Shown here piece by piece: positions 3,031 to 36,651 of a stretch of 62,368 nucleotides of DNA. The notes beneath the pieces were generated by a model. The model did no database searches. It saw nothing but the letters and a program-made list of their open reading frames with translations, and was not told the DNA's origin. Made by a program: the position numbers and the translations under genes. Source of the stretch: a virus. Taxonomy: Duplodnaviria > Caudoviricetes. The stretch is from positions 1 to 62,368 of the IMG/VR virus record IMGVR_UViG_3300042505_000324; one strand, 5' to 3'. Position 1 is the first letter of the stretch. Each line of letters opens with the position of its first letter.

Positions 3031-3031
3031 T

Positions 3032-3979: not shown

Positions 3980-3992
3980 ATGGTGTAAGGAG

Positions 3993-4202: not shown

Positions 4203-4203
4203 A

Positions 4204-4877: not shown

Positions 4878-4962
4878 CCAGATATACACAAGCTTATTTA
4901 TTTATCCCTAATCGGATAAGTATTTAAGCTTGTGTATATCTGGTTTTTTTTTTTTTTTTTTT
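4878..4962 (+). terminator. strong intrinsic terminator: 19-bp perfect stem plus T19
   Basis: CCAGATATACACAAGCTTA (4878-4896) is the exact reverse complement of 4925-4943; T run at 4944-4962. Confidence 0.85.
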
Positions 4963-4992: not shown

Positions 4993-5010
4993 AGCTGGTT
5001 AAATTAAAGA
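4993..5010 (+). promoter_or_regulatory. putative phage-RNAP promoter, class B copy 1 (packaging/structural operon)
   Basis: AGCTGGTTAAATTAAAGA, identical 18-mer at 45572; 13-bp core also at 52079. Confidence 0.7.
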
Positions 5011-10574: not shown

Positions 10575-13500
10575 ATGGCTACTATTGTAACAAGAGAGTT
10601 AGGAGCTACACCGAAAGGAAGTCCTCTAACTAATGCAGAAATTGATCAAAACTTTATTAATTTAAATAGTGCAATTACAGGTGGAGATATTACAGGTGGT
10701 TCTAGTTCTATTGATAATGCTATTGTTAGATATAATGGAATTACAGGTAAAATAATTCAAAATTCTGGAATTACTATTGATGATAATAACAATATAGATC
10801 AAGCTAATGCGATTACATTTGATGTAACTCCAGCTACATTACCTACAACACCAGGCACTCTTTATTGGGATAGTGCTGATGGTAATCAGACGTTAAGTTT
10901 GATAATGGCTGGCGGTACTGCCACACAACAAATTGGTGAAGAACTATATTATAGAATTAAAGCATCCGCACCAATCACCAACGGGCAAGTGGTTATGTTT
11001 ACGGGAACGGTTGGCGCAAGTGGGGCTTTAACAGGCGCACCAGCAACGGGATTAACTGCCGCAACCGCTTCTTATGTCATGGGGATTGCAACGCAAGATA
11101 TGGCGACTAACGATTGGGGATATGTAACTTCATTCGGTTTAGTTCGTAACATTAACACTTCGGCTTTTACGGCTGGCGATATTTTATATTTTAATCCATC
11201 TGTAACGGGTGGCTTAACAACAACAATTCCAACCGCACCAAACGCAAAAGTTCAAGTTTGTGCAGTCATATATTCAAGCGCAACCGTTGGTTCATTATTT
11301 GTTCGCCCATCATTTGGTGGCATTTTAGGTCAATACGAAGGTGATGTTAATTTTACAAGCATAGCAGCTGGAAACTTAATCTGTAGAAACGCAGGCAACA
11401 CTGCTTGGGAAAACGTTACAGCAATACCAAATACACAAGTATCTGGTCTTGGTACAATCTCAACACAAAATGCAAACAATGTAACTGTTACTGGTGGATC
11501 GATTAATGGAACAACATTAGGCGCTACAACTCCAAGTACGGTGGTGGCTACTACGGGTAATTTCACTGGTCCAACTCCAACAGGCAATGCTGTAGTTGTA
11601 AGAACTACGGGTGGTGACGCAGTATCTATTACCACCAGAGCAACTGGGTTAGGTGGCGTAATCTCAGCTACAGATACTACATTAGCTACTTATGCCAATC
11701 TAGATATTATATGTAATGGAGCTTTTATTAAGGCTAACAATGGTGCAACAGTACTTACAATTAATAGTACTGGGTTAGCCGTAACAGGGAATTTAAGTGC
11801 AACAGGCACTCTAACAGGTGTAACAGACCTAACAACTACAGGTAACACTATCTTAGGCAATGCCTCTACCGATACATTAAACGTAGGTAATGGGGGGTTG
11901 GTTAAAGATGCTAATGGAAAACTATTGCTTGCTGCAACTTCTACAGGAATAATGTTTGATATATTAAGTACTAATCAGCAAACAAACGGTATTGATGTAA
12001 TTAAAGCAAGTCCTTATACTTATACAGATATTTACGGTTGTGGTACTGGTGGTACTTGGCAAGGTGTTATACGTTTCTACACATCTAATAATACAGCAGC
12101 TGTGGAACGTATGCGTATTGACTCCGCAGGTCAATTAGGTGTAGGAATGACTACAAGCTATGGAAAAGTATCCATAGCAAATACAAATGCTAGTGGTGGA
12201 TTACATTTATCAAATGGAACAACAGATACAGGAGGCTACCTAAATTCCACAGGGACAACTGAACTTATGGTGTCTGCTGGCGCAAGTTATAATAGCTACT
12301 CTGCCCCTAATTTTGTAATGAATGCTAAATCTACTATAGCAAGTGGTATTTATTTTGGTGGTGGAGTTACATCATTTTGGAATAATACAGGATTAACTGC
12401 AGGTACTACATTTAACCGAACAGAACGTATGCGCATAGATTCCTCAGGCAACGTAGGGATTGGTATAACACCAACAGCTAATACGACATGGGCTGGCGGA
12501 ACTGTAATTCCAGCCTTAGATATGGCGAAATCTTCACAATATAATGTTATCAATCTTAAATCTTATTCCACAAATGCTAATTCTTGCGGTATACTGGTTT
12601 TAAGTCACTCAAAATCCGCAACAATAGGTACACAGGTAGCAACTGCTAATAATGATTATTTAGGTTGGCTTGCTTTTGAAGGTGTAAATAGCTCTAATAC
12701 TATAGCTGGTGGCGCTGTGATTGGTGCATATCAAGAAGGTGCTGCAGGAGTAACTTACGTACCAAGTCGATTAGTGTTTTGGACATCAAATGGGACAACT
12801 GCACCAACAGAACGCATGCGCATTGACTCCAATGGAGTTGTAAGTGTAGGAGCCAACGTAACTACTGTTCAATCTGGGTGGGCAGGGTCTGGTAATAAGT
12901 TACAAATAAGCAATGCTGGTGTATCTACGACTACTCAACAAATTATTAAAACTTATTCTGCTTCTACTAGCTTTGCTGGGGGTCTCTCTCTTGGTAAATC
13001 TGGAAGTAATACACTTAATACATTAGCTATTACTGGTACAGAAACTCTTGGATTTCTTACATTTGATGGTGTAAATAGTTCTAATACTGTATTCTCTGCT
13101 TCCGCTATTACAGGCAATGGTACAGCAACACCTGGTGCATCTTACGGTGCAGGGGCATTATTATTCTGGACTAGTAATGGTGTTTCATCTGCTGCAGAAC
13201 GGATGCGTATAGATTCCTCAGGCAATGTAAATATATCAGGGCTTACCGCTTCACAAATAGTGATGACAGATGCAAATAAGAATTTAGTATCCTCTACTTT
13301 ATCTTCAGCTAATATAGCATCACTTAATGCAGCACAAACATTTACTGCGCCTCAACGTGGTTCTGTAACTACTGCCAATACTGCTGCCTTTGATGAAAGT
13401 GTAACTAATAACTTCCAATGTACACCTGCCGCAACAGTTGCGTTAACTTTTTCTAATCATACTGCTGGTCAATCAGGCTATGTATTACTTATTAATACTG

Positions 13501-17757: not shown

Positions 17758-19335
17758 ATGCAGGTCACAAACGCTATCCAAAACACAAAAACAGTAGCAG
17801 ATCCAATCGCTGCATATGAATCAATGAAGGCAATATGGTTGAAAAATAAGGCTGTCTGTAGTGGAGAGCGGTTCGTAAAGACATATGATACTTTCTTAGA
17901 TGTATTTACGTTCACGAATCTATTAATTCCATTCTCACCATCAATGACGCCTCAGCAATATGATTTTTATAAGACAGAAGCTGAGTTTCCTGGTATTACA
18001 TCTCAGTATTCTAAACTACTTGTAGGTGGTTTATTAAGAAAACAACCTATACTTAAGTTACCCAAAGATGCACCAGCAGATGCTATGCAATGGATTATGG
18101 ACGGTTTCGGTCAAGATAGTTCGCCTTTAATTTCTTTCTTGGATTCAGCATTATGGGAAGAAGTACAAACAGGTAGAGCATGGATAGCTTTAGACTATCC
18201 TAAATTAACTGATAAGCAATTAAATGAGATGTCACGTCCTGAGTTTTTAGCTCTAAAACCTTATCCAATCTTAATTAGTGCTGAGTCAATAATTAACTGG
18301 AAAGTTGCTGTATCTGCTAACGGTACGCAAGAATTGACACAATTAGTCATTCGAGGTTTTGAACCCGATTTTACACAAAATGAATTTCACGCTAATCAAG
18401 TTGCTACTGTATGGGTTCATGAAATTGTAGATGGTAAATACCAAATACGAACATATAGAAAGACTTCAGCTGAACAACAAATTGCTGTAATTAACGGTAG
18501 GGTACAAAAAGATTTTAACTTACAACGTGAAGTCTTTGAATTAAAAGAGACTAATACTAATATTCTTATTAATGGTGAAAGAATGAATACCATACCTATG
18601 TGGCCACTAAATGGTTCAATAGATATAGTAGAACCAATGATTACACCATTCGTAGATAGAGAGATTAGTCTGTATAATAAATTAAGTCGTAGAAATCATT
18701 TGTTATATGGTGCTTCTACATATACACCAATCATATCCTCTGATATGTCTGATGATGAATTCGATACTATTACCTCAGCTGGTTTAGGTAGTTGGATACG
18801 CTTACGTCAAGGTGATGAAGCTAAAGTATTAGAAACACCTACTGCAGCTTTACAAGATATGGACAGAGCAATTGCTGCTACTGTAGAAGATATGGCTAAA
18901 TTAGGTATGCGTATGTTATCACCAGAAACAGCACAATCAGGTGTAGCATTAGATATTCGAAATGCAGCACAGACAGCTCAATTAGGTACATTTAATATTA
19001 AAGTATCTAATCAAATGGCTGATATTATTGCATTTATGCTTAATTGGAGATATTCAAAAGAATATACTTCTGCTGATATTGAATTCAGTTTATCTAACGA
19101 CTTCTCTAGTGTATCTATGGATTACAACTGGTTACGTCTTATTACTGAATGGTATCAAGCTGGTCTATTACCTAGAACTGCTTGGTTACAAATTCTAAAA
19201 CAAAATGATGTAATGCCACCTGATTATAACGATGATGATGGCAAGTTAGAGATAAATAAGGATGATATAATTAATACTCCACCGATTACACCGAGTGATA
19301 CTAGTTATATCGATAAACTTCAAGCCGTTGGATAG
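17758..19335 (+). CDS. portal protein (DUF4055-like)
   Basis: 525 aa; YxxYKxxAEF, GRAWIALDYP, AESIINW motifs; precedes MuF, scaffold and capsid genes. Confidence 0.85.
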   Translation: MQVTNAIQNTKTVADPIAAYESMKAIWLKNKAVCSGERFVKTYDTFLDVFTFTNLLIPFSPSMTPQQYDFYKTEAEFPGITSQYSKLLVGGLLRKQPILKLPKDAPADAMQWIMDGFGQDSSPLISFLDSALWEEVQTGRAWIALDYPKLTDKQLNEMSRPEFLALKPYPILISAESIINWKVAVSANGTQELTQLVIRGFEPDFTQNEFHANQVATVWVHEIVDGKYQIRTYRKTSAEQQIAVINGRVQKDFNLQREVFELKETNTNILINGERMNTIPMWPLNGSIDIVEPMITPFVDREISLYNKLSRRNHLLYGASTYTPIISSDMSDDEFDTITSAGLGSWIRLRQGDEAKVLETPTAALQDMDRAIAATVEDMAKLGMRMLSPETAQSGVALDIRNAAQTAQLGTFNIKVSNQMADIIAFMLNWRYSKEYTSADIEFSLSNDFSSVSMDYNWLRLITEWYQAGLLPRTAWLQILKQNDVMPPDYNDDDGKLEINKDDIINTPPITPSDTSYIDKLQAVG

Positions 19336-19343
19336 GAATCTAA

Positions 19344-22300
19344 ATGACACCGAACGCTAATACACAGATTTATAATAAAGCTGTAGATCGTGCCGCTATG
19401 ATAAGACTATATGAAAGACGACTAAATGGGAAGATAGATATAGTGCTTCAAGGACATCATGTAAAAGTGGCTGACCTAGTAGCTAACGCTAATCTATCTC
19501 CTAAAGGTTTTGAATTGCTTAGAGAAGCCGTAGATTCACAATTAGTTAGTACCTTTAAAGAAGTACGTAATATTCATAGTTCATCACTATTAGATTTAGT
19601 GAGTGACCAAATGTCTTATACATATCAGAATATAGAAAATACCGTAGGTAAGATATGGAGAACACAGAAACCGAATAGACGTATTTCTGAGGACATTGTT
19701 TTGAATCAACCTCTTCATAATAATCGCACATTATTTGAGGGGTGGTTAGGGGTCAGCTTAGGCGAACGAAAACGTTTGGAGAGTGTGATAAGAAAGGGTA
19801 TAGCCGATGGTAGTTCGGTGGACGAAATCGCTTTAGCCGTCAGGAAAGGAAATGTGTTCAATATTACTAGAGCTCAATCTAAAGCTTTAGTGATTACTTC
19901 CATTACTTCCGTAACTGCTCAAACAGATCACGCTGTTTATAAGGCAAATGAAAAATCATTACAAGGGTGGCAATATGTTGCGGTACTTGATTCAAGAACT
20001 TCAGAACTTTGTGCGCATAGGGACGGAACTGTTTATGATGTTGGTGATGTTATTCACCTTCCTCCTGCTCATTATAATTGTAGGTCTACCACGGTACCTG
20101 TCGTTAAGTCTTGGGAAGATTTGTCGAGACTTGAAGGTGTGGCTCAAATCCGTAAAAGGAATTTAAAAGATTTAAGTCAGAAACAAATACAATTCTATGA
20201 TGGACAATTACCATTAAAAGAGTCTTACAATGATTGGCTCAAGAATCAACCTTCTGAAGTACAATTACGACACTTAGGTGATTATAATAAATTAGAAGCT
20301 TTTAGAGCTGGACAATTACATTTATCACAATTTACTAATGATTCAGGAAATTCCATAGGTATAAAAGAACTTAGGATGTTAACTGATTCAGGTTATGCTG
20401 TACCTGGTGATACTAGAAGATTTGCTGTAGCTAAAGAGAGATTAGACACTATAAAATTAGGTGCTTCTAGTCCAGATGATTTTATTAGTGATAAAGAATT
20501 ACAAAAATCACTAAAAGAATATTATATCTTACAGGCAGGTGAATTAGACGGTCAATTATCATATACTAACTATCGTGGTGCATTGATGGGCACTAAACGT
20601 TCTATGAAGAATAAAGTATTAACAACACCTCCAACTGAGGATAATACAATATTTAATCCTATAACAGGACGTTATGAAGATTCCAGAATGTATCAACCTA
20701 GTTTAGAAACATTAGATAATAATCTTAAATTAGTAAATGAAAGTACAAGATTACTCCCTAGAGATAAAGAGTTTATAACTAAGTTTATAACCGATTTAGA
20801 AGGGAATATGAGTGTAAATGAAAGAGCTGTAGTTACAGATAATCTTAGAATTATATTTGGTCATAATAGAGCTAATCCAGAACCGTGGGTTAATTTTAAA
20901 GCTGTATCTAATGCTCAAATAAAATTCGATGTAATGAACGTATCTGATTATATGGAAACCCAAATAAGAAAAGATACTGATTTATTAAAGAAACTTAAGA
21001 TAGCTAATTACGTAGACCCAGTTCTTGGACCAGTGCAATTACAAGATCTTCATGATACATTTCTAGATAGTATTAAAACTAGAAATAAATGGGAAGATAA
21101 AGTTGCACCTAAGATAGCTAGAGAACTACGTAACATTCTGGATTATAAACTGCCTGTTAAATTAAAGAGTAGAATAGATGATAAAGATATTGAAAATTTT
21201 TATCTTAGATTTGCACAAAGATTAGCATTAGCAGATTCTCCAGATAGAGACCAATTAGCAATATCACTAGGTCGTGACCTATATAATATGGCTAATTTTA
21301 AAGGTTCTCGAAATGAATGGTATAAAGTAGGGATTAAGATATTAGATGATGCAGATTCTAAAGGCTTCTATAAATTAGAAACTTTTGGAGTACAAAAGAG
21401 ACGTATGAAAAGTCGTATGAGTAATAATTACTTTGGACCGTATTATGATACATTCTCTGTTAATCTTCGTATTGTAGATCCACGTATTCAAGAATATTCT
21501 CAACTAACTAGAAAGATAGACTTAGGTCTTAGAGTTAGTGTAGTTGATGATAAGAATCGTTTAATCATTCGAGAAGGTTACAAAACATATTTTATCGATG
21601 ATGGCATATTAGGTTATACTGATACTAGAATCCCTATTACAAGTACTAGTAGTTTTAGTAATTTTCCAGTAGAACTAGTAGATAAGGATTTAGCAGATGC
21701 ATTAAATTGGTCTGCTAAAGCCAGATATAAAGTCGATAAAGATTTTTACGAATTTATAAATAAATTAATAAACTTTGAAGATGATAAAGGTAAAGCTAAA
21801 TACTATCACGATTTAAACTCTTATAGAGAATATATGATCGGTAGAGGTGATGCTTATGAACGTTTAAAAGCTATGGAATGGTTAAATACCAATAACTATA
21901 GTTTCAGTAATACACCATTTCTAGACCATAGAGCTCGTATCTATGATAGGGGGCTTATTGGTCCACAATCTGGTGAAACGTTTAGACCTTTCTTAAGCAC
22001 GGAAGTTGAAAAAGCATTTAGTGTTGATGATTACTACAACTTACAAGACCAAATAGGTTCATTCTTAGGTGGTTTAAGTGATACATTAGAAGGTTCATAT
22101 AACTCGTTATCTATAACTGGTAGACAGAAAATAGCTGATAAGTGGAAACCTGAACTAATAAAAATCGGTAATCATATGTTAAGAGGCAAACCTAATGATA
22201 TTAGAACTATTTTAGAATCTTCATTTATAGCGGAAATAGACGGTGAAGAACAAGGTAAAGTATTAAGATTTGCTTTGGAAATGGCTAAAATAGATAATCA

Positions 22301-23828
22301 CCTAAAAGGTAATTATGATTTAAATAATCTTAAGACATTAACAACTTACAAAACAGCCTTAGCTTTAGAACAAGATGCGTCTTCAAGTGGTGCGCAGATT
22401 ATCGCATTAACAACTAAAAATAAACAGTTAGCTGAACTTTCAAATGTTGTACCTACCGATTACAAGAAACGCTTATACGATGAGATTGCTGGACTTACTT
22501 TTAACGACCCTAGATTTAGAGAATTAAATATTAAACTAGGATTAACGGAAAAAGATTTAAGGAAAGCTGCTAAAGCTCAGAATATGGTAAGTTTCTATGG
22601 TGCAGGCGAACGTACAGGTATTTTGAATGTTGAAGGTAAGTTAGCTAAAGCTTTAAACAAAGAAGATGGTGTATTAGTAGTGAAAGCTGCTGACAGAGAT
22701 ACTGTATTAAGTGAAATATCCGCTAGAATGGCTAGATATGAAACTTTTGATACTGAAGTCTATGATGAATTAAAAGCTCTAAGACAAGATGTTAAAGATA
22801 TCTTCAATAAAGGCTTACAACCTGGTGATGATATAATGGAACAGTTATATTTCTTAGACCCTAAAACAAAAGACTTAGTAGAGAAATTATCTCAATCATA
22901 CGAGAAAGTCGTAACACCAGAAGATTTTGCTACTATCGCAAAGATAATGAGTGAAAACTTAAAGAATCAAGTTCCTATATTACAAGAATTTACTAAGTTT
23001 CATGGAAGACTTGCAGAAGATTTTCTAATAAATGCTAGACCAAAAGATAGCGTAACAGGTCTTTCAGATTGGCTAGCTAAACAAGTATTAGGTGTTCGTA
23101 ATACTAGACCACCTACTATATTAGAAAGAATTCCTAATTATCACCCAAAGAATAGTATTGCTAATTTAGTATATGGAATAAAAGAAGATAAACTACCTAA
23201 AAAATGGACATCAGTACCGTGGATTAATTTTGATGGTAAAACTATTGAACAAAACTTCACACAAACATTTGAAGAAAGACTTCGATATCAAGATAAAGAC
23301 GGTAAATGGATAACTAATATTATTCAGGTAGACCAAAAGACAGACCCTACATGGTGGGAAGCAGTAACTAATAAAGCAGACACGATTAATGATATTGCAG
23401 ATGCTGGTAAGGCTAGAACAGCCTTCGCAGTTAACGGCAATCATAGTAACGATGCTACACTAGTCAAACAATTTCACTTATGGGGTTCAAAGAATAATGT
23501 TGCTACTAGTACAGTACATGATGCGTTCTTTACTAATACAACAGATATGTTGAAATCAAGAGAGGCTCTTAGACAAATTTACGCTAATGCATTAAAGAAT
23601 AATAGTACTAAAGATACATTAGATGAAATGAGAAAGCGTGGATTACCTAGAGAACTATATGATAAATATTTAAATGAAGCTATTGACATTGGACTAATAC
23701 CTGTGGTGGGACGTTCCAGAGTTGGTGGAAGACTTTTAACAGAAACGGATATCTTACGTGAGTCAGATATTCTTAAAATACTTCCTAAAGGTTATAAGAA
23801 TGATTATAGCTTTTATGGAGTCGGGTAG
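19344..23828 (+). CDS. MuF/SPP1-gp7 minor head protein fused to a T7-type single-subunit RNA polymerase (putative virion RNAP)
   Basis: N-terminal WQYVAVLDSRTSELC...PPAHYNCRS (MuF); C-terminal DHRARIY, motif A QDASSSGAQ, motif B RKAAKAQNMVSFYG, NHSNDA, motif C VHDAF. Confidence 0.9.
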   Translation: MTPNANTQIYNKAVDRAAMIRLYERRLNGKIDIVLQGHHVKVADLVANANLSPKGFELLREAVDSQLVSTFKEVRNIHSSSLLDLVSDQMSYTYQNIENTVGKIWRTQKPNRRISEDIVLNQPLHNNRTLFEGWLGVSLGERKRLESVIRKGIADGSSVDEIALAVRKGNVFNITRAQSKALVITSITSVTAQTDHAVYKANEKSLQGWQYVAVLDSRTSELCAHRDGTVYDVGDVIHLPPAHYNCRSTTVPVVKSWEDLSRLEGVAQIRKRNLKDLSQKQIQFYDGQLPLKESYNDWLKNQPSEVQLRHLGDYNKLEAFRAGQLHLSQFTNDSGNSIGIKELRMLTDSGYAVPGDTRRFAVAKERLDTIKLGASSPDDFISDKELQKSLKEYYILQAGELDGQLSYTNYRGALMGTKRSMKNKVLTTPPTEDNTIFNPITGRYEDSRMYQPSLETLDNNLKLVNESTRLLPRDKEFITKFITDLEGNMSVNERAVVTDNLRIIFGHNRANPEPWVNFKAVSNAQIKFDVMNVSDYMETQIRKDTDLLKKLKIANYVDPVLGPVQLQDLHDTFLDSIKTRNKWEDKVAPKIARELRNILDYKLPVKLKSRIDDKDIENFYLRFAQRLALADSPDRDQLAISLGRDLYNMANFKGSRNEWYKVGIKILDDADSKGFYKLETFGVQKRRMKSRMSNNYFGPYYDTFSVNLRIVDPRIQEYSQLTRKIDLGLRVSVVDDKNRLIIREGYKTYFIDDGILGYTDTRIPITSTSSFSNFPVELVDKDLADALNWSAKARYKVDKDFYEFINKLINFEDDKGKAKYYHDLNSYREYMIGRGDAYERLKAMEWLNTNNYSFSNTPFLDHRARIYDRGLIGPQSGETFRPFLSTEVEKAFSVDDYYNLQDQIGSFLGGLSDTLEGSYNSLSITGRQKIADKWKPELIKIGNHMLRGKPNDIRTILESSFIAEIDGEEQGKVLRFALEMAKIDNHLKGNYDLNNLKTLTTYKTALALEQDASSSGAQIIALTTKNKQLAELSNVVPTDYKKRLYDEIAGLTFNDPRFRELNIKLGLTEKDLRKAAKAQNMVSFYGAGERTGILNVEGKLAKALNKEDGVLVVKAADRDTVLSEISARMARYETFDTEVYDELKALRQDVKDIFNKGLQPGDDIMEQLYFLDPKTKDLVEKLSQSYEKVVTPEDFATIAKIMSENLKNQVPILQEFTKFHGRLAEDFLINARPKDSVTGLSDWLAKQVLGVRNTRPPTILERIPNYHPKNSIANLVYGIKEDKLPKKWTSVPWINFDGKTIEQNFTQTFEERLRYQDKDGKWITNIIQVDQKTDPTWWEAVTNKADTINDIADAGKARTAFAVNGNHSNDATLVKQFHLWGSKNNVATSTVHDAFFTNTTDMLKSREALRQIYANALKNNSTKDTLDEMRKRGLPRELYDKYLNEAIDIGLIPVVGRSRVGGRLLTETDILRESDILKILPKGYKNDYSFYGVG

Positions 23829-23940: not shown

Positions 23941-24609
23941 ATGTCATCAGATAACAATACACCAGATAACAACCCAGATCAAAATGTTCCAGATAACAAA
24001 CCTAACGAAGGTCAAGATTCAGAACTAATCGCTAAGTTAGTTAAGGAACGTCTAGAGTCAGAATTAAAACCAATCAAAGAAAAACTTGATAGTGCATTTT
24101 CTGCACGTGATGAAGCTCTTCGAAAGATTGCTGAATTTGAACAAAAAGAAAAAGACGAAAATCTCAAAAGACTGCAAGAAGAAGGTAAACATAAGGAAGC
24201 TTATGATTTACAACTAGCAGAAGAAAGAGCTAAGAAAGAAGTACTCGAAAAGAAAGTAACAGAGCTTACACGTGATGTTACTGTACGTGACGTACTAAAG
24301 AGTTACTCTTTCAGGAATGACAATGCTGCTGATATGGCGTATCGCGAGATAGTAAGCCAATTAGTTCAGAATGAACAAGGTGTTTGGGTTCATCGTTCAG
24401 GCGTTTCGATTAGAGAATTTACTGAAAGCTTCGCCAAAAGTGAAGAGCAATCTTTCTTGTTTAAAGTTAAGGGTAATAATGGTAGTGGTGGTGGCAATCC
24501 AAATCAAAACAATGATTCCTCGAATGACCAACCAAAATCTTTATTTGCCATGTCGCAAGCAGAGGTTCTGAAAATGGCTACAGAGGGTAAACTCCCAAAT
24601 AGAAAATAA
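23941..24609 (+). CDS. head scaffolding protein
   Basis: Charged coiled coil, N-rich ends, GSGGG linker; directly before the capsid gene. Confidence 0.8.
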   Translation: MSSDNNTPDNNPDQNVPDNKPNEGQDSELIAKLVKERLESELKPIKEKLDSAFSARDEALRKIAEFEQKEKDENLKRLQEEGKHKEAYDLQLAEERAKKEVLEKKVTELTRDVTVRDVLKSYSFRNDNAADMAYREIVSQLVQNEQGVWVHRSGVSIREFTESFAKSEEQSFLFKVKGNNGSGGGNPNQNNDSSNDQPKSLFAMSQAEVLKMATEGKLPNRK

Positions 24610-24619: not shown

Positions 24620-25807
24620 ATGACAGCTATTACAAATTTAAGTGGTGCAAGTAACTTTGTACTACAATCAGCTATTGGTGCATACAGCGATGAAGCATAC
24701 ACTAATGCTAAGAAATTATCAGGTACAGGTATTGTTGGTTCTAATCCAGATATCGATGTAAACACTGAAACATTTATCGGTCAAGTACGTTGGTACAAAC
24801 CTTTAAATGCACAAATCAATGTTGCATCATTGGTTACAGCTGATAATGGTACAGGTACTACTTACAGTTCAGATTTCTTAACTTACATTAAAACTGTTCG
24901 TACACATGGTGCTACTAAAGTAAACATGCAACAAGTAGTAACACAAGTAGATGGTTTAGCTAAAATTGGTCGTGATTTTGCTGAAACACGTTCACAAGAT
25001 GAACACAATGCTATCTTATCTGTATTAAAAGGTGTTGCTTTATCTGAAGCTTTAAACGGTGCAGCTGCTGGTTCAGGTGCTACTGGTCTTGGTGGTCAAA
25101 CATTTGATAATGACCCTACAGATGCTAAATATGGTTTCTATGTTGATCTTGGTACAGCTTCACCAGTTATTGCTGCTACTGCAGCTATTCAAGGTGCTTC
25201 ACGTGCTGAAGGTTTCTTGAATGCTGTTGGTAAAGCATGGAAAGATTACGAACCAGAGTATGCTTATCTTGTTTGCTCACCAGAAGTTATTGCATCATTA
25301 CGTTCAGCTAATTTAGTTGATGAAATGGGCGTTCAAGAAGCTAACATTATGTTTAGCACAATCTTTAATGGCAAATTCCGTTTAATCCAAACTCGTGCTG
25401 CTCAAGGTTTCTCTAGCACTGAATTGACTAAGATCAATACAGGTGCTGGTGTAGATATCGCTGGTGTTAAAACATCATATATCGTATTGCCTGGTTCAGT
25501 AGCTATGGAACAATTAAATGTTCCTGATTCTGTTGAAATCTATCGTGATGGTCGTACTTATAACGGTGGTGGTTCTACAGATATTTGGCATCGTTGGGGC
25601 TACGTGGCTCATCCAGCTGGTTACAACTGGGCTGGTTCTACTGCTGCATTCCCATCTGATGCAGCATATGCTTACGCAGTTGAAGGTTCAACACCAAAAG
25701 CATTAACATCAGTGTCTTCAGGTACATTAGCTTCAACTACAGGTACATGGGGTCGTAAAGCTTCATCTGCATTGGGCTTAGGTATTTTGCCAATTTTCCA
25801 CGCTTAA
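24620..25807 (+). CDS. major capsid protein
   Basis: 395 aa; strongly biased high-expression codons; VEIYRD...GGG...HPAGYNW; position after scaffold. Confidence 0.85.
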   Translation: MTAITNLSGASNFVLQSAIGAYSDEAYTNAKKLSGTGIVGSNPDIDVNTETFIGQVRWYKPLNAQINVASLVTADNGTGTTYSSDFLTYIKTVRTHGATKVNMQQVVTQVDGLAKIGRDFAETRSQDEHNAILSVLKGVALSEALNGAAAGSGATGLGGQTFDNDPTDAKYGFYVDLGTASPVIAATAAIQGASRAEGFLNAVGKAWKDYEPEYAYLVCSPEVIASLRSANLVDEMGVQEANIMFSTIFNGKFRLIQTRAAQGFSSTELTKINTGAGVDIAGVKTSYIVLPGSVAMEQLNVPDSVEIYRDGRTYNGGGSTDIWHRWGYVAHPAGYNWAGSTAAFPSDAAYAYAVEGSTPKALTSVSSGTLASTTGTWGRKASSALGLGILPIFHA

Positions 25808-29058: not shown

Positions 29059-32000
29059 ATGTCTGGTATCATTATTGATGTAAAGGCTAACTCCGAACAA
29101 GCCAATAGAGATATAGGGAAATTAAATGATTCTCTCAGAAATATAGAGAAAACAACTTCTAGTATGTCAACAGGATTAAAAAGCTTAGCAGTAAGTTTTG
29201 GATCCGTGCTTGCTTCTGGATTAACTGTAAATTATTTAAAGAACGTAGCTGACACCTTCGTTGGAATAAACAATAAGATTAGATTAGTTACTGGAACTAC
29301 TAATCAATTAGTAACTGCGCAAAGAGAACTACTTAAAATATCTAATACTACTAGAAGTAGTTTAGAAGGTTCTGCAGCATTATTTAGTAAATTAGGCTTA
29401 GCATTACAAAAGAATGGTGCATCTGTTGGTAACGTATTAAAAGCTACTGAATCTATTCAGAAAGCTATTGCGTTATCAGGTGCCTCTGCCGATTCTGCTG
29501 CAGCAGCAGTGATACAATTGGGTCAAGGTTTATCATCTGGCACATTGCGTGGTGAAGAATTAAACTCTGTATTAGAACAAACGCCTCGTGTAGCTAAGGC
29601 TATTGCGGATGGATTAAAGATATCTACAGGTCAATTAAGATTATTAGCTGCAAATGGACAAATAACATCAGAAAAAGTATTTTCTGCTATTCTATCACAA
29701 TCTGAACAAATTAATAAAGAGTTTTCTACATTGACTCCAACCCTTTCACAAGGGATGACACAATTAGGTACAGCTACTAAAGTTTTTACAAACGAATTGA
29801 TGAAAGGTTTCAGTTCTGGTGGTGGTGGGTTAGCAACAGTATTCTCTAAACTTGCTGATAAGATATTAGTAGCATCAGATACTATTGCCAGTGATACTAC
29901 AATATTTTTGAATAAACTAAGAGCTGGTTTAAAAATAATTACTATCTTAGCAAATATTTCAGGTGGATTATTCAGTGCGGTAGGTTCACAATTCTTATCT
30001 GCATTACCTTCTATTAAGACTGTTAAAACATTAGCTAAAGATATAGTAAGTACATTTGAAACATTAACAGCCCCTATTACTAAAATATTTACAAATATTT
30101 TTAAAAGTATGGGTAATGCATTTGGCGATGTTTTTAATTTTGATACAGGTGTTGAGAAAGCACTATCAGAAATACGAAGAATAGAATTTGCATTTAATAT
30201 TACTACATTACTAAAATATCAAGTAGCTTTCCAACACTTATCTACAGCTATTAGGGAAAATAGTACTAGTATAGGTGCTTCCGTAAATAGATTTGTAAAT
30301 AGTTTATCTTCTGGATTTGATAGTGTATTACGATATGTAGGCATATTACCAGATACATTATTTACTTTTAGAGTAGGTGACATGGGACCAATGGTAAGTA
30401 CTATTGCCCAAGTATTAAGAAGTCTAACTGGTATTAAAGTAAAAATATGGGAAGTATCAACAATATTATCAGATGTATTTGGTAGCACATTTGCACCATT
30501 ACTTAATTTCCTATCAGATGTCTTGGATTTAACTACATCTAAATTAGGTAAAGCAGCTGATTATATAAAGAATTTTGCTAGTGATATCATCGAATACTTT
30601 AGAGACATTTATGATAAAGTTATTGGTCATTCTTGGTGGACAGATACTATAGATGGTATTGTTAATCAATCTGAAGGATTATTAGCAAGAGTTAAGAAAC
30701 CATTTGAAACATTTAAGAACTTTATATTTACATTATTTAAAGAAATAAATGGAACTAATTTATTAGATTCATTATCTAATGTAGCTTCTAATTTAACAGG
30801 TGGTAAATTATCATTTACTACTGATTTTAATTTTAAAGATAGTCTAAATACTATTAAGACAGAATTTCCAGAAGCATTTAAAACTGCGATATTAGCTTCT
30901 TCTGGATTAGTCGTTGCTATGTTATTTCCAGCTAATGCTATTAAAACAGCATTAATGACAGCTATTATGATTGCTCTAGCTACTACTGGCTCTCTAGCTG
31001 CTGAGCGTTTTGGTAGTGATTTATTTGGTGGTAGCTTTATTACTGATGCTGCTAATGGTATTGGTAAGGCGTTAGGATTTCTTGTAGCGGATTTTATCAG
31101 AAATATCCCCCAATTATTAAATGCACTATTAGGAATAGTGAACGGATTCGTACAGGGTTTTCTATCAGAAATGCCACTGTTATTCGGGACAATATTTAAA
31201 GGTTTATTCTCGATAGCTAATTTCTTAGGATTAGCTGGACCAATGGGTATTTTAGGGTCTATATTATTTGGTGTAGGTGTTTCAAAATTATTAGGTAATT
31301 TCGATACAATCAAAACTGCTTCTACTAAATTAGTGGCAATATATAGTAGTCTTTCAGCATTTGTAAAAGGTGAAGGCGGACTAATATCACAAGGATTATT
31401 TGGATTAACTGGTGGTCCAGTAAGAACATTATCTGGATTAGGTTTAATCTTATCCTCACTAGGTACTTTTGATGGATTATTTGCTAACTCAGAATTAGCA
31501 CATTTAGCTTTAAATGGTGGATTATTATATTTAAGTTTGTTTGGACAAAGAGGTTTAGAAACGATTATTTCTAAAGGTAAAAGTACAATAGCAAGCATAA
31601 CTACAAATTTAAGAGATAGTATGTCTTCATTGGCAGGTACTAGTAGTTCAATGAATCTGTTATACACTTTAATATTTGGAACAGAACAAACAAGGGGTGT
31701 ATTGTTCACTTCTATAAAAGATAGCTTAGCTTCTAAACTTAGCGAATTATATAGTTTTACGGCTAAATTACTTGTTAACTTAACCAGTAAAAGTGTAGAT
31801 GTAATGTCTACATTACTATTTGGCACCGATAAGGAAGCCGTCTATAAAACAATAAAAGATAAGCTTAATACTTTAATCTCATTTATATCAGCACAACTTA
31901 GCACATTTAAGAATAATATCGCTAAGAATGCCAAAATGAGTGCTTTTGATACATTATTTAGGATGCCAAATGTCAAAAATACTGCAAATGATTTAGATAC

Positions 32001-35000
32001 AGTATTAACCACAACATTTAATAAACTAGATATGAGAGCTAAAAAGTTAGCTGGTGAAAAGGGCTTATTAGGTACACTATTTGAAGGGAAGGGTAAAACT
32101 AAATTAATACTTCTCGCATTAGCTGGTATTGCTTTATTTTCTGGCGCTGCTTCAGCTTCTGAATCCTTGAATACTTCGTTAGAAGCTAATGTTACAAACA
32201 CTGATAGATTATTCGAGTCTTTTACTATATTTGTAAAAGATAACCCTATAAAAAGTTTTGCGACTGCCGCAGTCATTGCAATCACATCTATTACTACTGC
32301 TCTAGACATTTTGAATAAGAAACAATTAGGAACTACTTTACTATCTAGTTTAGGCAGTATGGGTACAAATGCAATGCGTGGTGGTGCTATTGGCTTACAA
32401 AGAAGTGCCAGAGGTTCTGCTTATATGGCAGGAGGCGCAGCAGCTATTGGCGGTTATATAGGATACGCTAATAGTGCTCCAAATGCCAGTGGATCTGAGA
32501 AAGCAACTAATATTGCATTAGGCGTTGCAGGTGGTGTGTTTGTAGAACAATTAGTTACTGGTATGCTAAACAAACTTAAAAATGGTGGGTATGCATCTAG
32601 AATTGCTGGATTTCTTGGAGACGGTATTTTATTAGGTTTAAAATGGATAGTTGTTACTGCTGTAGAAACATTGGCAGGTATTGCTGCGGGTTTTATGGCA
32701 TTAAGTTTCCCAATGGCTGCTGCTGTAGTCGGAGGAGTAACGGCAGTTACCTCTGTATTGGTAATTGGTTTAGCAAGTTTGTGGGATAGTATGCGTAACG
32801 GAACTAGTTATGTTAAAGCATTATCTGATAATTGGGATAATGTTAGAATAATGACTGGATTTAGTCCTAATAGATTAGACAGACATCAGCAACTAGATGC
32901 TTCTAAATATACTAAGATACTTCCAGATACTAAAGCTGGTAATATCACTATCGGTGATTTAGGGTTTAAACAAATAGACCAGAAATTATTAACTGCCTTA
33001 GATGACACACAATTAACTAAATCAATGACAGAATTAAAAACACAAGTTGATTCAGCTAATAAAGAGTTTGCATTGACTGGTGAACTAATGCCAGCCACTA
33101 GGGATGCAGTAAAAGCTTCTATTGAAAATGTTAAAAGAGATACTGCTCGCGCTGCTTCTAGGACTAGTCCAGAATTACAACAATCTTTGAAAAATATAAA
33201 TGCTGTAAGTCTTCCAAGTGGCTCAGACTTCCCATTAATGAGACGTTTACAAAATAGAATAAATCAAAGTAGATTAGATAAGTTGTATAATATAACATCT
33301 AGTTTAGGTGAGTCTAGTGATGATTTCTTGATTAAATTGCAAAGTAAAAAGGCAACTGCTTATAGTGCAATGTTACAGAAAACTGACCCACAAACAGAAA
33401 CTCTACAAAAGCTGGCAAATGGTTTAGGTGATATGTCTAGTATTACTAATCAGAAATTGAAAGATAATGTAGAGAAAGCGATGCAGGCTTATATTGATGC
33501 TCGTAAGGATTCTTTAATTCAAACTGATACTTCTGGAAATTGGTTCAATACAAGTGGTACAAAAGAGAGTCAAAAGAAAGCTCAGGAAAATAAGAAACAA
33601 GCATTTAACGCTGCAGTAAGCGCATTAACTGAATTAGATGCATTTGCTAAGAGAGAAAGAGCAGTTAAAGCTTTTAACGAATCGTTAACTGGTTTACAAG
33701 CTGATTTAGCTAAAGCAAATATTACAATTTCAGATAATGTTTTATTTTCTAGAGATCAGTCTTCTTTTGATAAAATAAGAGGTTTTACTACTTTATTAGC
33801 TAAATTACAACTAGATTTAGTGAAAACTAAAGATTTTGCTGAAAGAAACAAAATATCGATACAAATAGAAACTACCACTAGAAATATAAACAATGAAGCT
33901 ACTAGCGGTCAAAACAATATACCATTACCAGAAAGTATTGCAACCCTTAATGCAAGTACAAACTCTGGATTAAATGATGCGCTAATTTCTAAATTAAGCA
34001 CTAGTAAACAAAAGCAAATACTCGGTCAATTACAAGATTTAAGTAGTGTGCAAAACACTATGTTAAATTCTAAATTGGAATTAAGTCCAGAGGCTAAGAG
34101 AGGGTATGAAGTTTATTCGGCATCTGTAAAAAGTGCTTTACAAAATTCTGTTATACTTTCTTTAGGAAGAACGGCTATTGACACTAGTGAATTAATGGGT
34201 GCAGGAAGACCTGTTAGTGCTAAAGGTATTGATGCCAGAGCAGTTTCAATGATTAAACGTGCTAAATTAATGAACGCTATAGAAGTAGCTGCTGTGAAAG
34301 GGTATGGGAATGCTGGTGAATTAGCTCAACTAGAACAGCAACTTATTCAAGTGAATAGAGATTTAAATCCACCAGTTAGAACATTTGAAACTATATTACA
34401 AGAAATTGGAATGGCAGGTACAAATGCCTCTTTAGCACAGTTATTCTACATTCCTAAAGATGTTAGAAGTAGATTAGCTGAAATTGGTAAAGAAATGGCG
34501 GCTATTAACTATGAACTATCTTTTGAAGGAACTGACCAATTATCTAAGAGATCTTTAGAATTAGCTAAACAATCTGCTAAATTACAAAAAGAAGGTGCTG
34601 CATTATCTCTAAAGGCTCAACCTAAAACACTAGCCAATACATTTGAGAAATTAAATGCATTGGGTCTTGACATGACACCTGCTAAATTCGATGCATTAGG
34701 TGGTATGAATAGTGAACTGGCAAAAGCTGTAGAAACGTTAGACTTACTTAATCTAAAGAAAAATCAGGAAGGCGAAGACCAATTTAAATTAAACAAATTA
34801 ATTAAAATCCAAATGGATTTAGTTGATAATTTAAAACTTAAATATGGCACGTATGGTGAAACCGCTAAAACAGTTATAGATATGTTCCCAACTGCTGTTA
34901 TTACACAATTAGAATGGGCGAGTGCAACGGATGAAACTAAAAACGCTTTGATTGGGCTAACTGCAAAATATAAGACATTAAACGATCAAAGTCAATTAGG

Positions 35001-36651
35001 TATTGGAAATTCTTTAGAGAATATGAATAAATTAAGAGCCATATCTGATGAAGCCGAAGCATTGGCTAATAATATGCGTTCACCAATTTCTTTATCTTTA
35101 GCACGTATTAAGAAATCTGGCGGTAATTTATCTGACACAGGATATTTAAACACTACTGAGACTCAAAGAAATTATATTGATAATCAAGCCAGATTGATTG
35201 AAATATTCCAGAAACAATTGGAAAATAATACATTTAAAGATAATCCAGCATTAGAGGCACAAGCACGTAGTATTGTAGACCAAGCTAAGAAGAATTTAGC
35301 ATTAGCAATAGAAGGTGTTTCCGAAGATAAAACTAACTTAGAGAAATATACTAAGGCAGGCGCAAGTTTAAGTCAATCTGAATTAGATAGAATGTCTGGT
35401 GCTATCTTAGAACCTTTAGTATCTATTCGTAATAAAATATTAGAACAAATGGCAGTATTGTCTAAAGCTGATACAACTAATGAAGAAAGAGCAGTAGCAC
35501 AAAATAGTATAGATAATCTACAATTAGGGTTAGAACAAGGATTAGCTATAGCTAAATCTAAAACGCTAAGAGTTCAAGATACATTAGCTTGGAAGGCTGG
35601 AGAAGATTTATCTAATACAATGAAAGATTCTTTTGCGAATGGCTTAAAATCTGTATTAAATAGAACAGCAAGTGTTAAAGACGCAATACTTTCAATGGCG
35701 CAAGCGTATTCAGAAGCAGTAATAAATAGTTTTGTAGATGGTTTGACTAGTTCATTATTTAAAGCTGGTGGAACACTAAGTACAATGTTTAAAAATATGG
35801 GTATGGATGTATTTGGCAAAGGTGCTAGTTTATTAGGCGGTAATAATGAACCGTTAATAATGTCTAACTCATCTTTAGTGGTGGCAATTAATACGCTAAC
35901 AGCTACTATGTCTAGTGCAACATTATCTAACGGATTTGCAGCTAGTAATATATTAGGTAATAACGCATTCATGGGGCCACCAGCACCTACAGAAATTTCT
36001 GCAGATGGTATCGCTATTGTAGCCTCTCAACAGTTGAATACAGATCAAGTTATCTCAACCGAACAGGGCTTCTTTAGTAGTTTAGGCGGAGTGTTCATGA
36101 AAGGGTTAACTGGCTTGGGTAGTCTGCTAAAAGGTGCTTGGCAAGGATTAACTAGTATGTTTAGTGGAAGTTCAGGTAGTGGGATGTTAGGTGGATTATT
36201 TAGTGGAATTAGTGGTTTATTTTCTTCTGGCGGATTTGAAACATTTTCTAACTTCCTTCAATACGGACCAATGACACTAGCCACAGGTGGTCATGTTTCT
36301 GGTGCTGGCACTGGAACTTCCGATTCTATTAGAGCTTTATTATCTAATGGTGAGTTTGTGGTAAATGCTAAAGCTACTAAACAAAATAGAGCATTATTAG
36401 AAGCAATAAATGCAGACGGTATACCTCGCTTTGCAACAGGAGGTATGGTTGATGGTTCTGCTTATAGTGCTTTAAATTCTGCAATAGTCCAACGTGATGC
36501 TAATAATAAAACTTTAAATACGCAACAATCAGTATTTAATATTAATGTTACTGGCGATATCTCACGTCAAACTAGAAATGAAATACAAGCTATGATTCCT
36601 CAAATCGCTGTTGGTGTAAACCAAAATAACAGAGAAAGTGGATATAGATAA
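29059..36651 (+). CDS. tape measure protein (2530 aa)
   Basis: N-terminal QLGQGLSSGTLRGEELNSVLEQTP; C-terminal ATGGHVSGAGTGTSDSIRALLSNGEFVVNA; follows the chaperone frameshift. Confidence 0.95.
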   Translation: MSGIIIDVKANSEQANRDIGKLNDSLRNIEKTTSSMSTGLKSLAVSFGSVLASGLTVNYLKNVADTFVGINNKIRLVTGTTNQLVTAQRELLKISNTTRSSLEGSAALFSKLGLALQKNGASVGNVLKATESIQKAIALSGASADSAAAAVIQLGQGLSSGTLRGEELNSVLEQTPRVAKAIADGLKISTGQLRLLAANGQITSEKVFSAILSQSEQINKEFSTLTPTLSQGMTQLGTATKVFTNELMKGFSSGGGGLATVFSKLADKILVASDTIASDTTIFLNKLRAGLKIITILANISGGLFSAVGSQFLSALPSIKTVKTLAKDIVSTFETLTAPITKIFTNIFKSMGNAFGDVFNFDTGVEKALSEIRRIEFAFNITTLLKYQVAFQHLSTAIRENSTSIGASVNRFVNSLSSGFDSVLRYVGILPDTLFTFRVGDMGPMVSTIAQVLRSLTGIKVKIWEVSTILSDVFGSTFAPLLNFLSDVLDLTTSKLGKAADYIKNFASDIIEYFRDIYDKVIGHSWWTDTIDGIVNQSEGLLARVKKPFETFKNFIFTLFKEINGTNLLDSLSNVASNLTGGKLSFTTDFNFKDSLNTIKTEFPEAFKTAILASSGLVVAMLFPANAIKTALMTAIMIALATTGSLAAERFGSDLFGGSFITDAANGIGKALGFLVADFIRNIPQLLNALLGIVNGFVQGFLSEMPLLFGTIFKGLFSIANFLGLAGPMGILGSILFGVGVSKLLGNFDTIKTASTKLVAIYSSLSAFVKGEGGLISQGLFGLTGGPVRTLSGLGLILSSLGTFDGLFANSELAHLALNGGLLYLSLFGQRGLETIISKGKSTIASITTNLRDSMSSLAGTSSSMNLLYTLIFGTEQTRGVLFTSIKDSLASKLSELYSFTAKLLVNLTSKSVDVMSTLLFGTDKEAVYKTIKDKLNTLISFISAQLSTFKNNIAKNAKMSAFDTLFRMPNVKNTANDLDTVLTTTFNKLDMRAKKLAGEKGLLGTLFEGKGKTKLILLALAGIALFSGAASASESLNTSLEANVTNTDRLFESFTIFVKDNPIKSFATAAVIAITSITTALDILNKKQLGTTLLSSLGSMGTNAMRGGAIGLQRSARGSAYMAGGAAAIGGYIGYANSAPNASGSEKATNIALGVAGGVFVEQLVTGMLNKLKNGGYASRIAGFLGDGILLGLKWIVVTAVETLAGIAAGFMALSFPMAAAVVGGVTAVTSVLVIGLASLWDSMRNGTSYVKALSDNWDNVRIMTGFSPNRLDRHQQLDASKYTKILPDTKAGNITIGDLGFKQIDQKLLTALDDTQLTKSMTELKTQVDSANKEFALTGELMPATRDAVKASIENVKRDTARAASRTSPELQQSLKNINAVSLPSGSDFPLMRRLQNRINQSRLDKLYNITSSLGESSDDFLIKLQSKKATAYSAMLQKTDPQTETLQKLANGLGDMSSITNQKLKDNVEKAMQAYIDARKDSLIQTDTSGNWFNTSGTKESQKKAQENKKQAFNAAVSALTELDAFAKRERAVKAFNESLTGLQADLAKANITISDNVLFSRDQSSFDKIRGFTTLLAKLQLDLVKTKDFAERNKISIQIETTTRNINNEATSGQNNIPLPESIATLNASTNSGLNDALISKLSTSKQKQILGQLQDLSSVQNTMLNSKLELSPEAKRGYEVYSASVKSALQNSVILSLGRTAIDTSELMGAGRPVSAKGIDARAVSMIKRAKLMNAIEVAAVKGYGNAGELAQLEQQLIQVNRDLNPPVRTFETILQEIGMAGTNASLAQLFYIPKDVRSRLAEIGKEMAAINYELSFEGTDQLSKRSLELAKQSAKLQKEGAALSLKAQPKTLANTFEKLNALGLDMTPAKFDALGGMNSELAKAVETLDLLNLKKNQEGEDQFKLNKLIKIQMDLVDNLKLKYGTYGETAKTVIDMFPTAVITQLEWASATDETKNALIGLTAKYKTLNDQSQLGIGNSLENMNKLRAISDEAEALANNMRSPISLSLARIKKSGGNLSDTGYLNTTETQRNYIDNQARLIEIFQKQLENNTFKDNPALEAQARSIVDQAKKNLALAIEGVSEDKTNLEKYTKAGASLSQSELDRMSGAILEPLVSIRNKILEQMAVLSKADTTNEERAVAQNSIDNLQLGLEQGLAIAKSKTLRVQDTLAWKAGEDLSNTMKDSFANGLKSVLNRTASVKDAILSMAQAYSEAVINSFVDGLTSSLFKAGGTLSTMFKNMGMDVFGKGASLLGGNNEPLIMSNSSLVVAINTLTATMSSATLSNGFAASNILGNNAFMGPPAPTEISADGIAIVASQQLNTDQVISTEQGFFSSLGGVFMKGLTGLGSLLKGAWQGLTSMFSGSSGSGMLGGLFSGISGLFSSGGFETFSNFLQYGPMTLATGGHVSGAGTGTSDSIRALLSNGEFVVNAKATKQNRALLEAINADGIPRFATGGMVDGSAYSALNSAIVQRDANNKTLNTQQSVFNINVTGDISRQTRNEIQAMIPQIAVGVNQNNRESGYR

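Follow-up and report, generated by a model that had tools for sequence, protein, structure and literature searches.

In phage SPP1, gp7 binds the portal and so takes its place, in a few copies, inside the procapsid. This targeting to the procapsid interior depends on the portal protein; virions without gp7 assemble, with only approximately 25% being infectious. MuF proteins of the gp7 type that bear C-terminal toxins are thought to enter capsids for delivery (accessible parts of PMC6316719, PMC5512222, and PMC12226406). In phage N4, a T7-superfamily RNA polymerase (RNAP) is packaged, ejected, and used to transcribe the early genes, and N4-like virion RNAPs (vRNAPs) were stated to be confined to N4-like podophages (Iyer et al. 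2017, PMC5512222, accessible part). Few phage lineages are known to have virion-delivered RNAPs, and every case has been informative on both transcription and protein ejection. Here, we describe a gene in which a MuF head module and a T7-type RNAP are encoded as one protein. The gene was found in the viral record IMGVR_UViG_3300042505_000324, which was analyzed over its whole length of 62,368 nt (hereafter, the window). We propose that the protein would be packaged, ejected with the genome, and used for early transcription, and the probability of this full chain was estimated at roughly 0.6.

The fused protein and its predicted fold

The fused gene (P0001; 19344-23828, plus strand) is an uninterrupted open reading frame (ORF) of 1494 aa with an ATG start. 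A MuF/SPP1-gp7-like head module occupies aa 1-348 (19344-20387), an eight-residue linker aa 349-356 (20388-20411), and a single-subunit T7-type RNAP module aa 357-1494 (20412-23825), all on the plus strand. Only two Pfam families were detected in the protein: Phage_Mu_F (PF04233) at aa 145-250 (E = 5.6e-14; 53.3 bits vs. a cut-off of 29.6) and RNA_pol (PF00940) at aa 995-1432 (E = 4.1e-11; 42.8 bits vs. a cut-off of 22). PHROG 241 ("head morphogenesis") spanned aa 1-346 (2.2e-61). Near aa 998-1101, two RNA polymerase PHROGs (414 and 2051) were matched. The MuF/gp7 signature, which the original prediction had placed near 19970-20090, was present at nt 19986-20087 and consists of LDSRTSELC (aa 215-223) and PPAHYNCRS (aa 240-248).

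The catalytic motifs of single-subunit RNAPs, also claimed in the original prediction, were all found at the expected sites on the plus strand. Motif A is EQDASSSGAQ (aa 1009-1018; 22368-22397), with D1011 opposite T7 D537. Motif B is LRKAAKAQNMVSFYGAG (aa 1072-1088; 22557-22607), with K1077, Y1085, and G1086 opposite T7 K631, Y639, and G640. Motif C is VHDAFF (aa 1391-1396; 23514-23531), with D1393 opposite T7 D812. Outside these three motifs, DHRARIY (aa 861-867) and NGNHSND (aa 1364-1370) were recovered. In BLASTP and hhalign alignments, the motifs of the fusion lay opposite T7 D421-R425, D537, R627/K631/Y639/G640, H784/D787, and D812, which belong to the catalytic motifs of T7 RNAP. T7 residue numbers were taken from the alignment coordinates, and the T7 RNAP sequence was that of NC_001604.

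Identity to T7 RNAP was 20-25% across two BLASTP segments. The first (E = 2e-5) paired DHRARIY with DWRGRVY and EQDASSSGAQ with AFDGSCSGIQ, and the second (E = 1e-4) paired NGNHSND...VHDAFF with NFVHSQD...IHDSF. When a profile of 38 family members was compared with T7 RNAP by hhalign, T7 residues 397-877 were aligned with a probability of 98.9% (E = 1.7e-17). A phmmer search of the whole fusion protein against the PDB sequences returned nothing meaningful (one match, E = 0.43).

The AlphaFold2 (AF2) model of aa 350-1494, made from a 38-sequence alignment, had a mean predicted local distance difference test score (pLDDT) of 82.7 and a predicted template-modeling (TM) score of 0.78; the model of aa 1-560 had a pLDDT of 86.4. 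Values less than 50 occurred solely at aa 349-356 in the shorter model and at residues 1-10 in the longer one. Because these stretches agree, the boundaries given above (MuF 1-348, linker 349-356, polymerase 357-1494) were adopted, the linker being the sole low-confidence segment between the modules. A Foldseek search of the PDB with the model of aa 350-1494 gave 74 matches at E ≤ 1e-3. T7 RNAP elongation and initiation complexes ranked first (8dh4_M, E = 1.8e-19), followed by yeast and human mitochondrial RNAPs; these matches had E-values of approximately 1e-19 to 1e-16 and TM-scores of 0.43-0.60 (normalized to the target). The 10 best matches covered 974-1137 aligned columns. Thus, the part after the linker is predicted to be more than a palm fragment, corresponding to a whole single-subunit polymerase in which the N-terminal domain also has its equivalent. 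A β-hairpin in this model occupies the position of the T7 specificity loop.

Among predicted viral structures, the best match was a 1463-aa protein (27% identity, TM-score 0.80), which is probably the DSS3 phage homolog described below. T7-like RNAPs came next (E = 1e-20 to 1e-14; the two best were 762 and 732 aa long), and pieces of N4-like vRNAPs ranked below them (E = 1e-12 to 1e-7). The fold that had been anticipated for the protein was therefore recovered in part. The T7 RNAP fold was found with AF2, Foldseek, and hhalign, and the Phage_Mu_F domain was found with Pfam, whereas the model of aa 1-560 had no PDB match at E ≤ 1e-3, and no solved MuF-like structure was found. With the Pfam gathering scores passed, and with the hhalign and Foldseek E-values given above, the domain assignment lies far above chance. 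We regard it as nearly certain that the protein is an active-type polymerase joined to MuF.

Conservation and interruption of the fused gene

Full-length relatives occurred in four records of the phage collection, namely EBPR siphovirus 1 (55% identity), DSS3_VP1 (two records), and DSS3_PM1 (27% for the DSS3 phages), over 95-100% of the length. Approximately 1000 more records matched the MuF part alone; a megablast search of the same collection with the fused gene gave no match. In a collection of 5.8 billion proteins, 461 proteins were found at E ≤ 1e-3 among 8000 candidates scored. A search by domain architecture had been suggested with the original prediction, and both Pfam domains were present in 114 of the 120 best database relatives, with RNA_pol alone in 5/120 and Mu_F alone in 1/120. 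The five relatives with RNA_pol alone were 934-1302 aa long and came for the most part from 4-12-kb contigs; they are probably truncated. In a library clustered at 50% (1.84 billion representatives), 171 proteins matched aa 350-1494 at E ≤ 1e-3; full-length members from this library were 1264-2073 aa long, with identities down to 22%. No ordinary T7-like RNAP of approximately 850 aa was seen among 150 listed of these 171 matches, and the fused polymerase module thus represents a distinct, deep branch. In IMG/VR, 184 of 191 candidate stretches encoded a relative of the fusion.

These results bear directly on the explanation that an assembly or gene-calling artefact joined a MuF gene to an RNAP gene. 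Contigs from four public sequencing runs were compared with the fused gene. One run, possibly the source of the window, was identical across the gene. In the independent freshwater run X4, a 974-nt contig with 13 differences spanned 19578-20551 and so bridged the linker (20388-20411). Runs X2 and X3 had no junction-bridging contig among the matches listed and were uninformative. The bridging contig, the single ORF in the isolates DSS3_VP1 and DSS3_PM1, the domain pairs in the database relatives, the alignment, and the IMG/VR loci exclude the assembly error that the original prediction had named as a danger, and we assign a negligible probability to an artefact of either kind.

Residue conservation was scored in an alignment of 28 full-length members (21-77% identity) and in a second set of 38 sequences. 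In the MuF module, D216, T219, C223, P240, P241, H243, C246, R247, and S248 were invariant in 28/28. In the polymerase module, R865, D1011, K1074, K1077, Y1085, G1086, D1370, and D1393 were invariant in 28/28, and D1011, K1077, Y1085, G1086, and D1393 were also invariant in 38/38. Phage_Mu_F was detected in all 28 diverse full-length relatives and RNA_pol in 24 of them (E ≤ 1e-3). Judged from these sequence comparisons, the fusion appears to be ancient and under selection.

In EBPR siphovirus 1, motif B of the fused gene is split between AQNMV and FYGAG, exactly after the codon equivalent to V1082, by an insert of approximately 0.9 kb. This insert contains an HNH ORF (L001 9176-10130), and its start matches the full Rfam group I intron model with 40.5 bits against a gathering score of 50 (E = 1.4e-8). 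In runs X2 and X4, contigs 95-99% identical to the window diverged after nt 22589 and resumed at 22593-22596, with at least approximately 450 unlike bases per side in one run. Because these contigs break at codon 1082, close strains appear to carry a mobile insertion at the motif B site; the fused gene of the window is the insert-free allele at this codon (22587-22596). At a different site, aa 987-994, directly before motif A, the longer relatives (1626-2073 aa) carry a variable insertion of 90-210 aa (seen in P0007, P0046, P0060, P0073, P0080, P0109, and P0110). An intein origin of these longer relatives was considered and rejected: the five tested had Mu_F and RNA_pol as their only Pfam families, and no intein-like ends were found.

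Conservation also bears on whether the polymerase module could be inert, a cargo whose role is limited to binding DNA or to structure, such as keeping the DNA end packaged last in place at the portal. The low identity to T7 RNAP would be compatible with such a role, as would the DNA binding of SPP1 gp7 (PMC12226406 and PMC6316719, accessible parts). However, both catalytic aspartates and the lysine, tyrosine, and glycine of motif B are invariant down to 21% identity, and a group-I-intron-like element with a homing endonuclease lies exactly in motif B of relatives. Such insertion sites usually fall where the DNA of essential enzymes is under the strongest constraint. An inert module is, in our estimate, very unlikely.

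Genomic context, a second polymerase, and the proposed delivery

The gene order portal, fusion, and scaffold, as originally described for the window, was borne out by PHROG matches. The portal protein gene (17758-19335, 525 aa; phrog_145, 5.6e-54; DUF4055) ends 8 nt before the fused gene, which is followed by the genes for the head scaffolding protein (23941-24609; phrog_206, 1.6e-10) and the major head protein (24620-25807; phrog_247, 7e-19), all on the plus strand. The same order of portal, fusion, scaffold, and major head genes was found in DSS3_VP1 and EBPR siphovirus 1. The portal of the window was 42% identical, and the major head protein was 43% identical, to the DSS3_VP1 counterpart. 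Of the 26 related loci examined, 16 had a portal homolog as the gene immediately preceding the fusion, and 14 of these portals aligned at 47-61% identity. Genes for a head-tail adaptor, head closure, tail terminator, 196-aa major tail protein, and tape measure follow 3′ of the major head gene, with a distal tail protein and a J-like central fiber 3′ of the tape measure gene. No sheath was found among the 20 structural-module ORFs scanned, nor among the 30 ORFs scanned with PHROGs; together with the major tail protein and the tape measure, this agrees with the siphovirus context assumed for the phage at the outset. The tape measure protein (29059-36651) has 2530 aa, so that the tail would be very long should the usual length rule apply.

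In addition to the fusion, the window encodes a free-standing T7-like RNA polymerase of 751 aa (RNAP2; 49415-51670, plus strand), which is the first large gene of the replication-side operon and had been overlooked in the original prediction. RNAP2 matched PF00940 (4.5e-59) and phrog_414 (2.8e-110) and was 26% identical to T7 RNAP (E = 6e-50) and 32% identical to the "RNA polymerase" of DSS3_VP1. The fused polymerase and RNAP2 were barely alike, with a best E-value of 0.002 around motif A; a recent duplication therefore did not give rise to the fused copy. The genome of DSS3_VP1 likewise has, in addition to the fusion, a 735-aa frame annotated as "RNA polymerase" (PF00940, 1.3e-82). The shorter of the two best T7-like RNAPs among the predicted viral structures has the length of the DSS3_VP1 RNAP2 ORF (732 aa) and may correspond to it. 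All four near-complete relatives searched (68-75 kb, CheckV 98-100%) had an RNAP frame of 743-775 aa plus a fusion of 1539-1550 aa. In the partial record of EBPR siphovirus 1, the fused gene was found and no second RNAP. With RNAP2 present in the window, in DSS3_VP1, and in 4/4 relatives, the fused copy is not the sole polymerase of the phage. By gene content, the fusion and RNAP2 appear to form an N4-like two-polymerase layout that is recurrent in relatives.

The two polymerase genes lie in different blocks of the genome. Approximately 35 very small ORFs are found at the window start, and this small-ORF block (1-4867) ends at a terminator-like element (4878-4962, plus strand) that consists of a perfect 19-bp hairpin (4878-4896/4925-4943) and 19 T (4944-4962) and precedes the packaging and structural operon. 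A second terminator-like element (49128-49200, plus strand), with an imperfect 15-bp hairpin and 31 T (49170-49200), ends the structural-side block. Between the two elements are the terminase, tail-fiber, head, tail, and lysis genes and some others, and the fused gene is inside this late structural operon, 3′ of the terminase gene. After the second element, a small hydrophobic ORF starts approximately 25 nt 3′ and is followed by RNAP2 and the replication genes (DNA polymerase A, 5′-3′ exonuclease, primase-helicase at 57460-59118, and class II ribonucleotide reductase [RNR]). The arrangement of hairpin, T run, small hydrophobic ORF, and RNAP2 was kept in 4/4 relatives inspected. The T runs of 19 and 31 are unusually long, and UUCG-type loops were seen upstream of RNAP2 in three of the four relatives.

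We propose that the MuF/SPP1-gp7 module (aa 1-348) acts as an address label for the capsid, joined by the flexible eight-residue linker to a catalytically intact T7-type polymerase. The fusion protein would be made late, alongside the head proteins, incorporated at the portal, and, when the next cell is infected, released from the capsid together with the DNA, at which point the polymerase would begin to transcribe the incoming genome without the host RNA polymerase. The early products would include RNAP2, which would then transcribe the replication, structural, and lysis operons, in a cascade functionally like that of N4 and independent in origin. A polymerase made only with capsid proteins is most useful if it is carried by the capsid. 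The conservation down to 21% identity, the position in the late structural operon, and the presence of RNAP2 strengthen this functional reading. Packaging of the protein in the virion, taken by itself, is judged quite likely.

The location in the late packaging and head operon, adjoining the portal gene and 3′ of the terminase gene, could also point to a role in the producing cell, such as packaging initiation, with the polymerase marking or opening the DNA while tethered to the portal or procapsid, or late transcription; the RNAP part might also be removed before or during head maturation. T7 RNAP itself is reportedly involved in concatemer processing and packaging, in work attributed to Zhang and Studier from 2004. 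Ejection of the fusion is itself a proposed step, and certain polyvalent capsid proteins, P1 DdrB among them, undergo processing ahead of packaging (PMC5512222, accessible part). Against a role of this kind, no prohead protease family was matched among the 30 window ORFs scanned with PHROGs, and there is therefore no sign of cleavage of the fusion. Moreover, a polymerase encoded by a late gene cannot start the operon that encodes it, the phage already has RNAP2, and MuF-fused cargo elsewhere has been read as delivered cargo (PMC5512222 and PMC6316719, accessible parts). We consider a role in the producing cell unlikely.

Another explanation keeps the delivery and changes the task, the polymerase serving mainly to draw the genome into the cell as a motor or to supply primers for the first round of replication. 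Transcription pulls the genome into the cell in T7 and N4. The domains, fold, and catalytic conservation described above apply equally to such a task, RNAP2 could in principle be expressed by the host RNAP, and no early promoter class was found. Pulling and priming, however, need promoter-directed transcription and would yield early transcripts anyway, so that this explanation is largely a variant of the proposed early transcription, and the genome encodes its own primase-helicase. As the main task of the protein, entry or priming appears quite improbable.

The promoter searches gave one candidate element. The sequence GCTGGTTAAATTAAAG occurs at 4994-5009 (plus strand), 32 nt after the first terminator and ahead of the terminase and structural operon, with a second exact copy at 45573-45588 (plus strand) ahead of the holin and endolysin genes. 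With three or fewer mismatches, six matches were found versus 1.44 expected, and none of 100 shuffles reached six. Weaker copies were found at 52078-52093, ahead of the replication genes, and at 62279-62294, after a hairpin; a copy with two mismatches lies inside the fused gene (21152-21167). In four relatives, GCTGGTTAAATTAAAG was not above the control level. It is a low-confidence candidate for the promoter of a phage polymerase. A sigma-70-type scan of 44000-62368 gave 94 matches versus 88.7 expected from shuffles, which was no better than chance, and a 12-mer enrichment scan returned AT-rich noise only.

Several observations weigh against delivery of the polymerase for early transcription. 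No candidate for an early promoter of the fused polymerase was found in the window, and none for a promoter of the RNAP2-led operon; the space of approximately 10-90 nt between the T run and the first ORF upstream of RNAP2, compared between the window and four relatives, had no shared motif beyond the terminator itself. A folded polymerase of approximately 170 kDa would have to unfold to cross the siphovirus tail. The DSS3_VP1/DSS3_PM1 paper, in its accessible part, contains no virion proteomics and no mention of an RNA polymerase (PMC8323127). On the side of delivery, a modeled complex between the portal and MuF (1-350) scored 0.43 versus 0.19 for the best control. The mark used in this prediction was reached by 58/80 solved complexes and by 2/110 mismatched pairs; scores of 0.60 or less comprised 7 of the 80 solved complexes and both passing mismatches, and the portal-MuF score is a weak one in this low range. 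At least 37% of the contacts agreed among runs, with a partner pLDDT of at least 79, and binding of the MuF module to the portal is thus weakly suggested by the model.

Other features of the window were as follows. The large ORFs were all on the plus strand, with a G+C content of approximately 30-39%; no tRNA was found in the window, and no Rfam family reached its gathering score. Nineteen DSS3_VP1 (NC_055826) ORFs matched window ORFs with their order kept, including those for the portal, scaffold, major head, and tail proteins, RNAP2, DNA polymerase (35% identity), exonuclease, and primase-helicase (43%). This synteny places the phage in a broad group that includes Naomviridae. Two host labels were rejected as unreliable, one from a phage-sized 74-kb contig in a "Gammaproteobacteria" metagenome-assembled genome and one from a UniRef fragment labeled Flavobacterium sp. 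Among the replication genes, a SegE-like GIY-YIG homing endonuclease ORF (56801-57346) lies between the 5′-3′ exonuclease and primase-helicase genes and has a 34%-identical counterpart in DSS3_VP1. The class II RNR gene appears to be interrupted, with RNR-II domains at 59130-60386, a LAGLIDADG endonuclease at 60462-61085, and an ORF at 61370-62083. A 32-nt element (TTGCGGAAA...GGTATCTTATATGAAGAAC) was present in two copies of 88% identity, one after a terminator-like hairpin 3′ of the endolysin gene (46679-46710) and the other at the end of a cell-wall hydrolase ORF (48509-48540). In the 1022-aa tail-fiber-like protein (phrog_9942), four repeats of approximately 387 nt (129 aa) were found at 12105-13248, with 63-71% identity.

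Comparison with known systems

The original prediction had left it undecided whether relatives of the fusion are already annotated as virion RNAPs. They are not: the labels found were "head morphogenesis," "minor head protein-like protein," "head protein" with "hypothetical protein," and "SPP1 gp7 family," although precomputed Pfam annotations do show MuF and RNA_pol together. The literature searched, which was mostly open-access and excluded supplements, was found neither to describe nor to interpret a MuF-RNAP fusion. The accessible parts of two surveys list no RNAP among MuF fusions (PMC5512222, PMC12226406). In the accessible text of the founding paper of Naomviridae, the terms "RNA polymerase," "RNAP," "MuF," and "minor head" are absent, and its supplementary gene tables may annotate the gene (PMC8323127). 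Later papers on the DSS3 phages are silent on the fusion in their accessible parts (PMC12697855, PMC12390700, PMC12669031).

The fusion of two well-studied modules gives a sharp prediction that is testable in the cultured phages DSS3_VP1 and DSS3_PM1 of Ruegeria pomeroyi DSS-3. If the proposed delivery is true, then it would explain how infection starts in this phage group, including the members with deoxyuridine (dU)-substituted DNA, and widespread long-tailed phages from freshwater and marine habitats, Naomviridae, and the wastewater phage EBPR siphovirus 1 would be fully independent of host RNAP. MuF would be a general delivery tag for large enzymes, beyond toxins, able to bring a working enzyme of approximately 130 kDa through a siphovirus tail. 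The module would also represent a single-subunit RNAP that is new, compact, highly divergent, and specific for promoters of its own, and the label "head morphogenesis protein" would be corrected in hundreds of metagenomic phage genomes. On the comparative evidence, the fused design is common to many uncultured phages and to the cultured roseophages DSS3_VP1 and DSS3_PM1.

The true homologs of the entire fusion are those of Naomviridae (DSS3_VP1 and DSS3_PM1) and EBPR siphovirus 1. The DSS3 phages have dU-DNA and a dCMP/dCTP (deoxycytidine mono- and triphosphate) deaminase (PMC8323127 and PMC12697855, accessible parts), whereas in this 62-kb window, which is possibly incomplete (relatives, 68-75 kb), the deoxycytidylate deaminase of DSS3_VP1 had no ORF match at E < 1e-4. 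Unless the window is incomplete, the fused polymerase is thus not tied to genomes with dU. A second free RNAP occurs in a T7-like phage (10.64898/2026.06.25.734500), which is, from the accessible part of its description, unrelated to the fusion system.

By all tested features, the fusion is a member of both the MuF and the T7-type RNAP families. Like SPP1 gp7 and Mu gpF, it has the N-terminal MuF motifs and is encoded directly 3′ of the portal gene, and it shares with the MuF polymorphic toxins a C-terminal extension with enzymatic cargo. MuF toxins are accompanied by an immunity gene and occur in temperate phages, whereas the cargo here is an RNAP of 1138 aa that would act for the phage and the next gene is that of the scaffold; the fusion is not one of these toxins. 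The fused module resembles T7 RNAP in its predicted fold, motifs A, B, and C, the DxRxR element, and the hairpin at the specificity-loop position. T7 RNAP, however, is an early, free-standing, nonvirion protein made after the host RNAP transcribes gene 1; the fused module is joined to a head protein, is encoded late, and is more divergent from T7 RNAP (E = 2e-5) than RNAP2 is (E = 6e-50).

Other routes by which phages carry an RNAP in the virion are the N4-type vRNAP and the virion enzymes of jumbo and crAss-like phages. There is about an even chance that MuF-RNAP is a third independently evolved way to bring in phage transcription machinery, possibly derived from a duplicate of RNAP2, that defines a host-RNAP-independent group in which MuF delivers the enzyme. 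The vRNAP of N4 (gp50) is likewise a T7-superfamily polymerase encoded among late virion genes, N4 also has a second, smaller RNAP for later genes (RNAPII, gp15/gp16), and the logic of injecting a polymerase, transcribing the early genes, and handing over is the one proposed here. In contrast, no sequence relation to N4 vRNAP was detectable (BLASTP, best E = 1.3; hhalign vs. mini-vRNAP, 1.1%). N4 vRNAP has 3500 aa with a fused metallopeptidase-like domain and a podophage neighborhood, whereas the window protein has MuF, no metallopeptidase-like domain in Pfam, and a head and tail module of siphovirus type. The fused polymerase would thus work like N4 vRNAP without being a member of its family.

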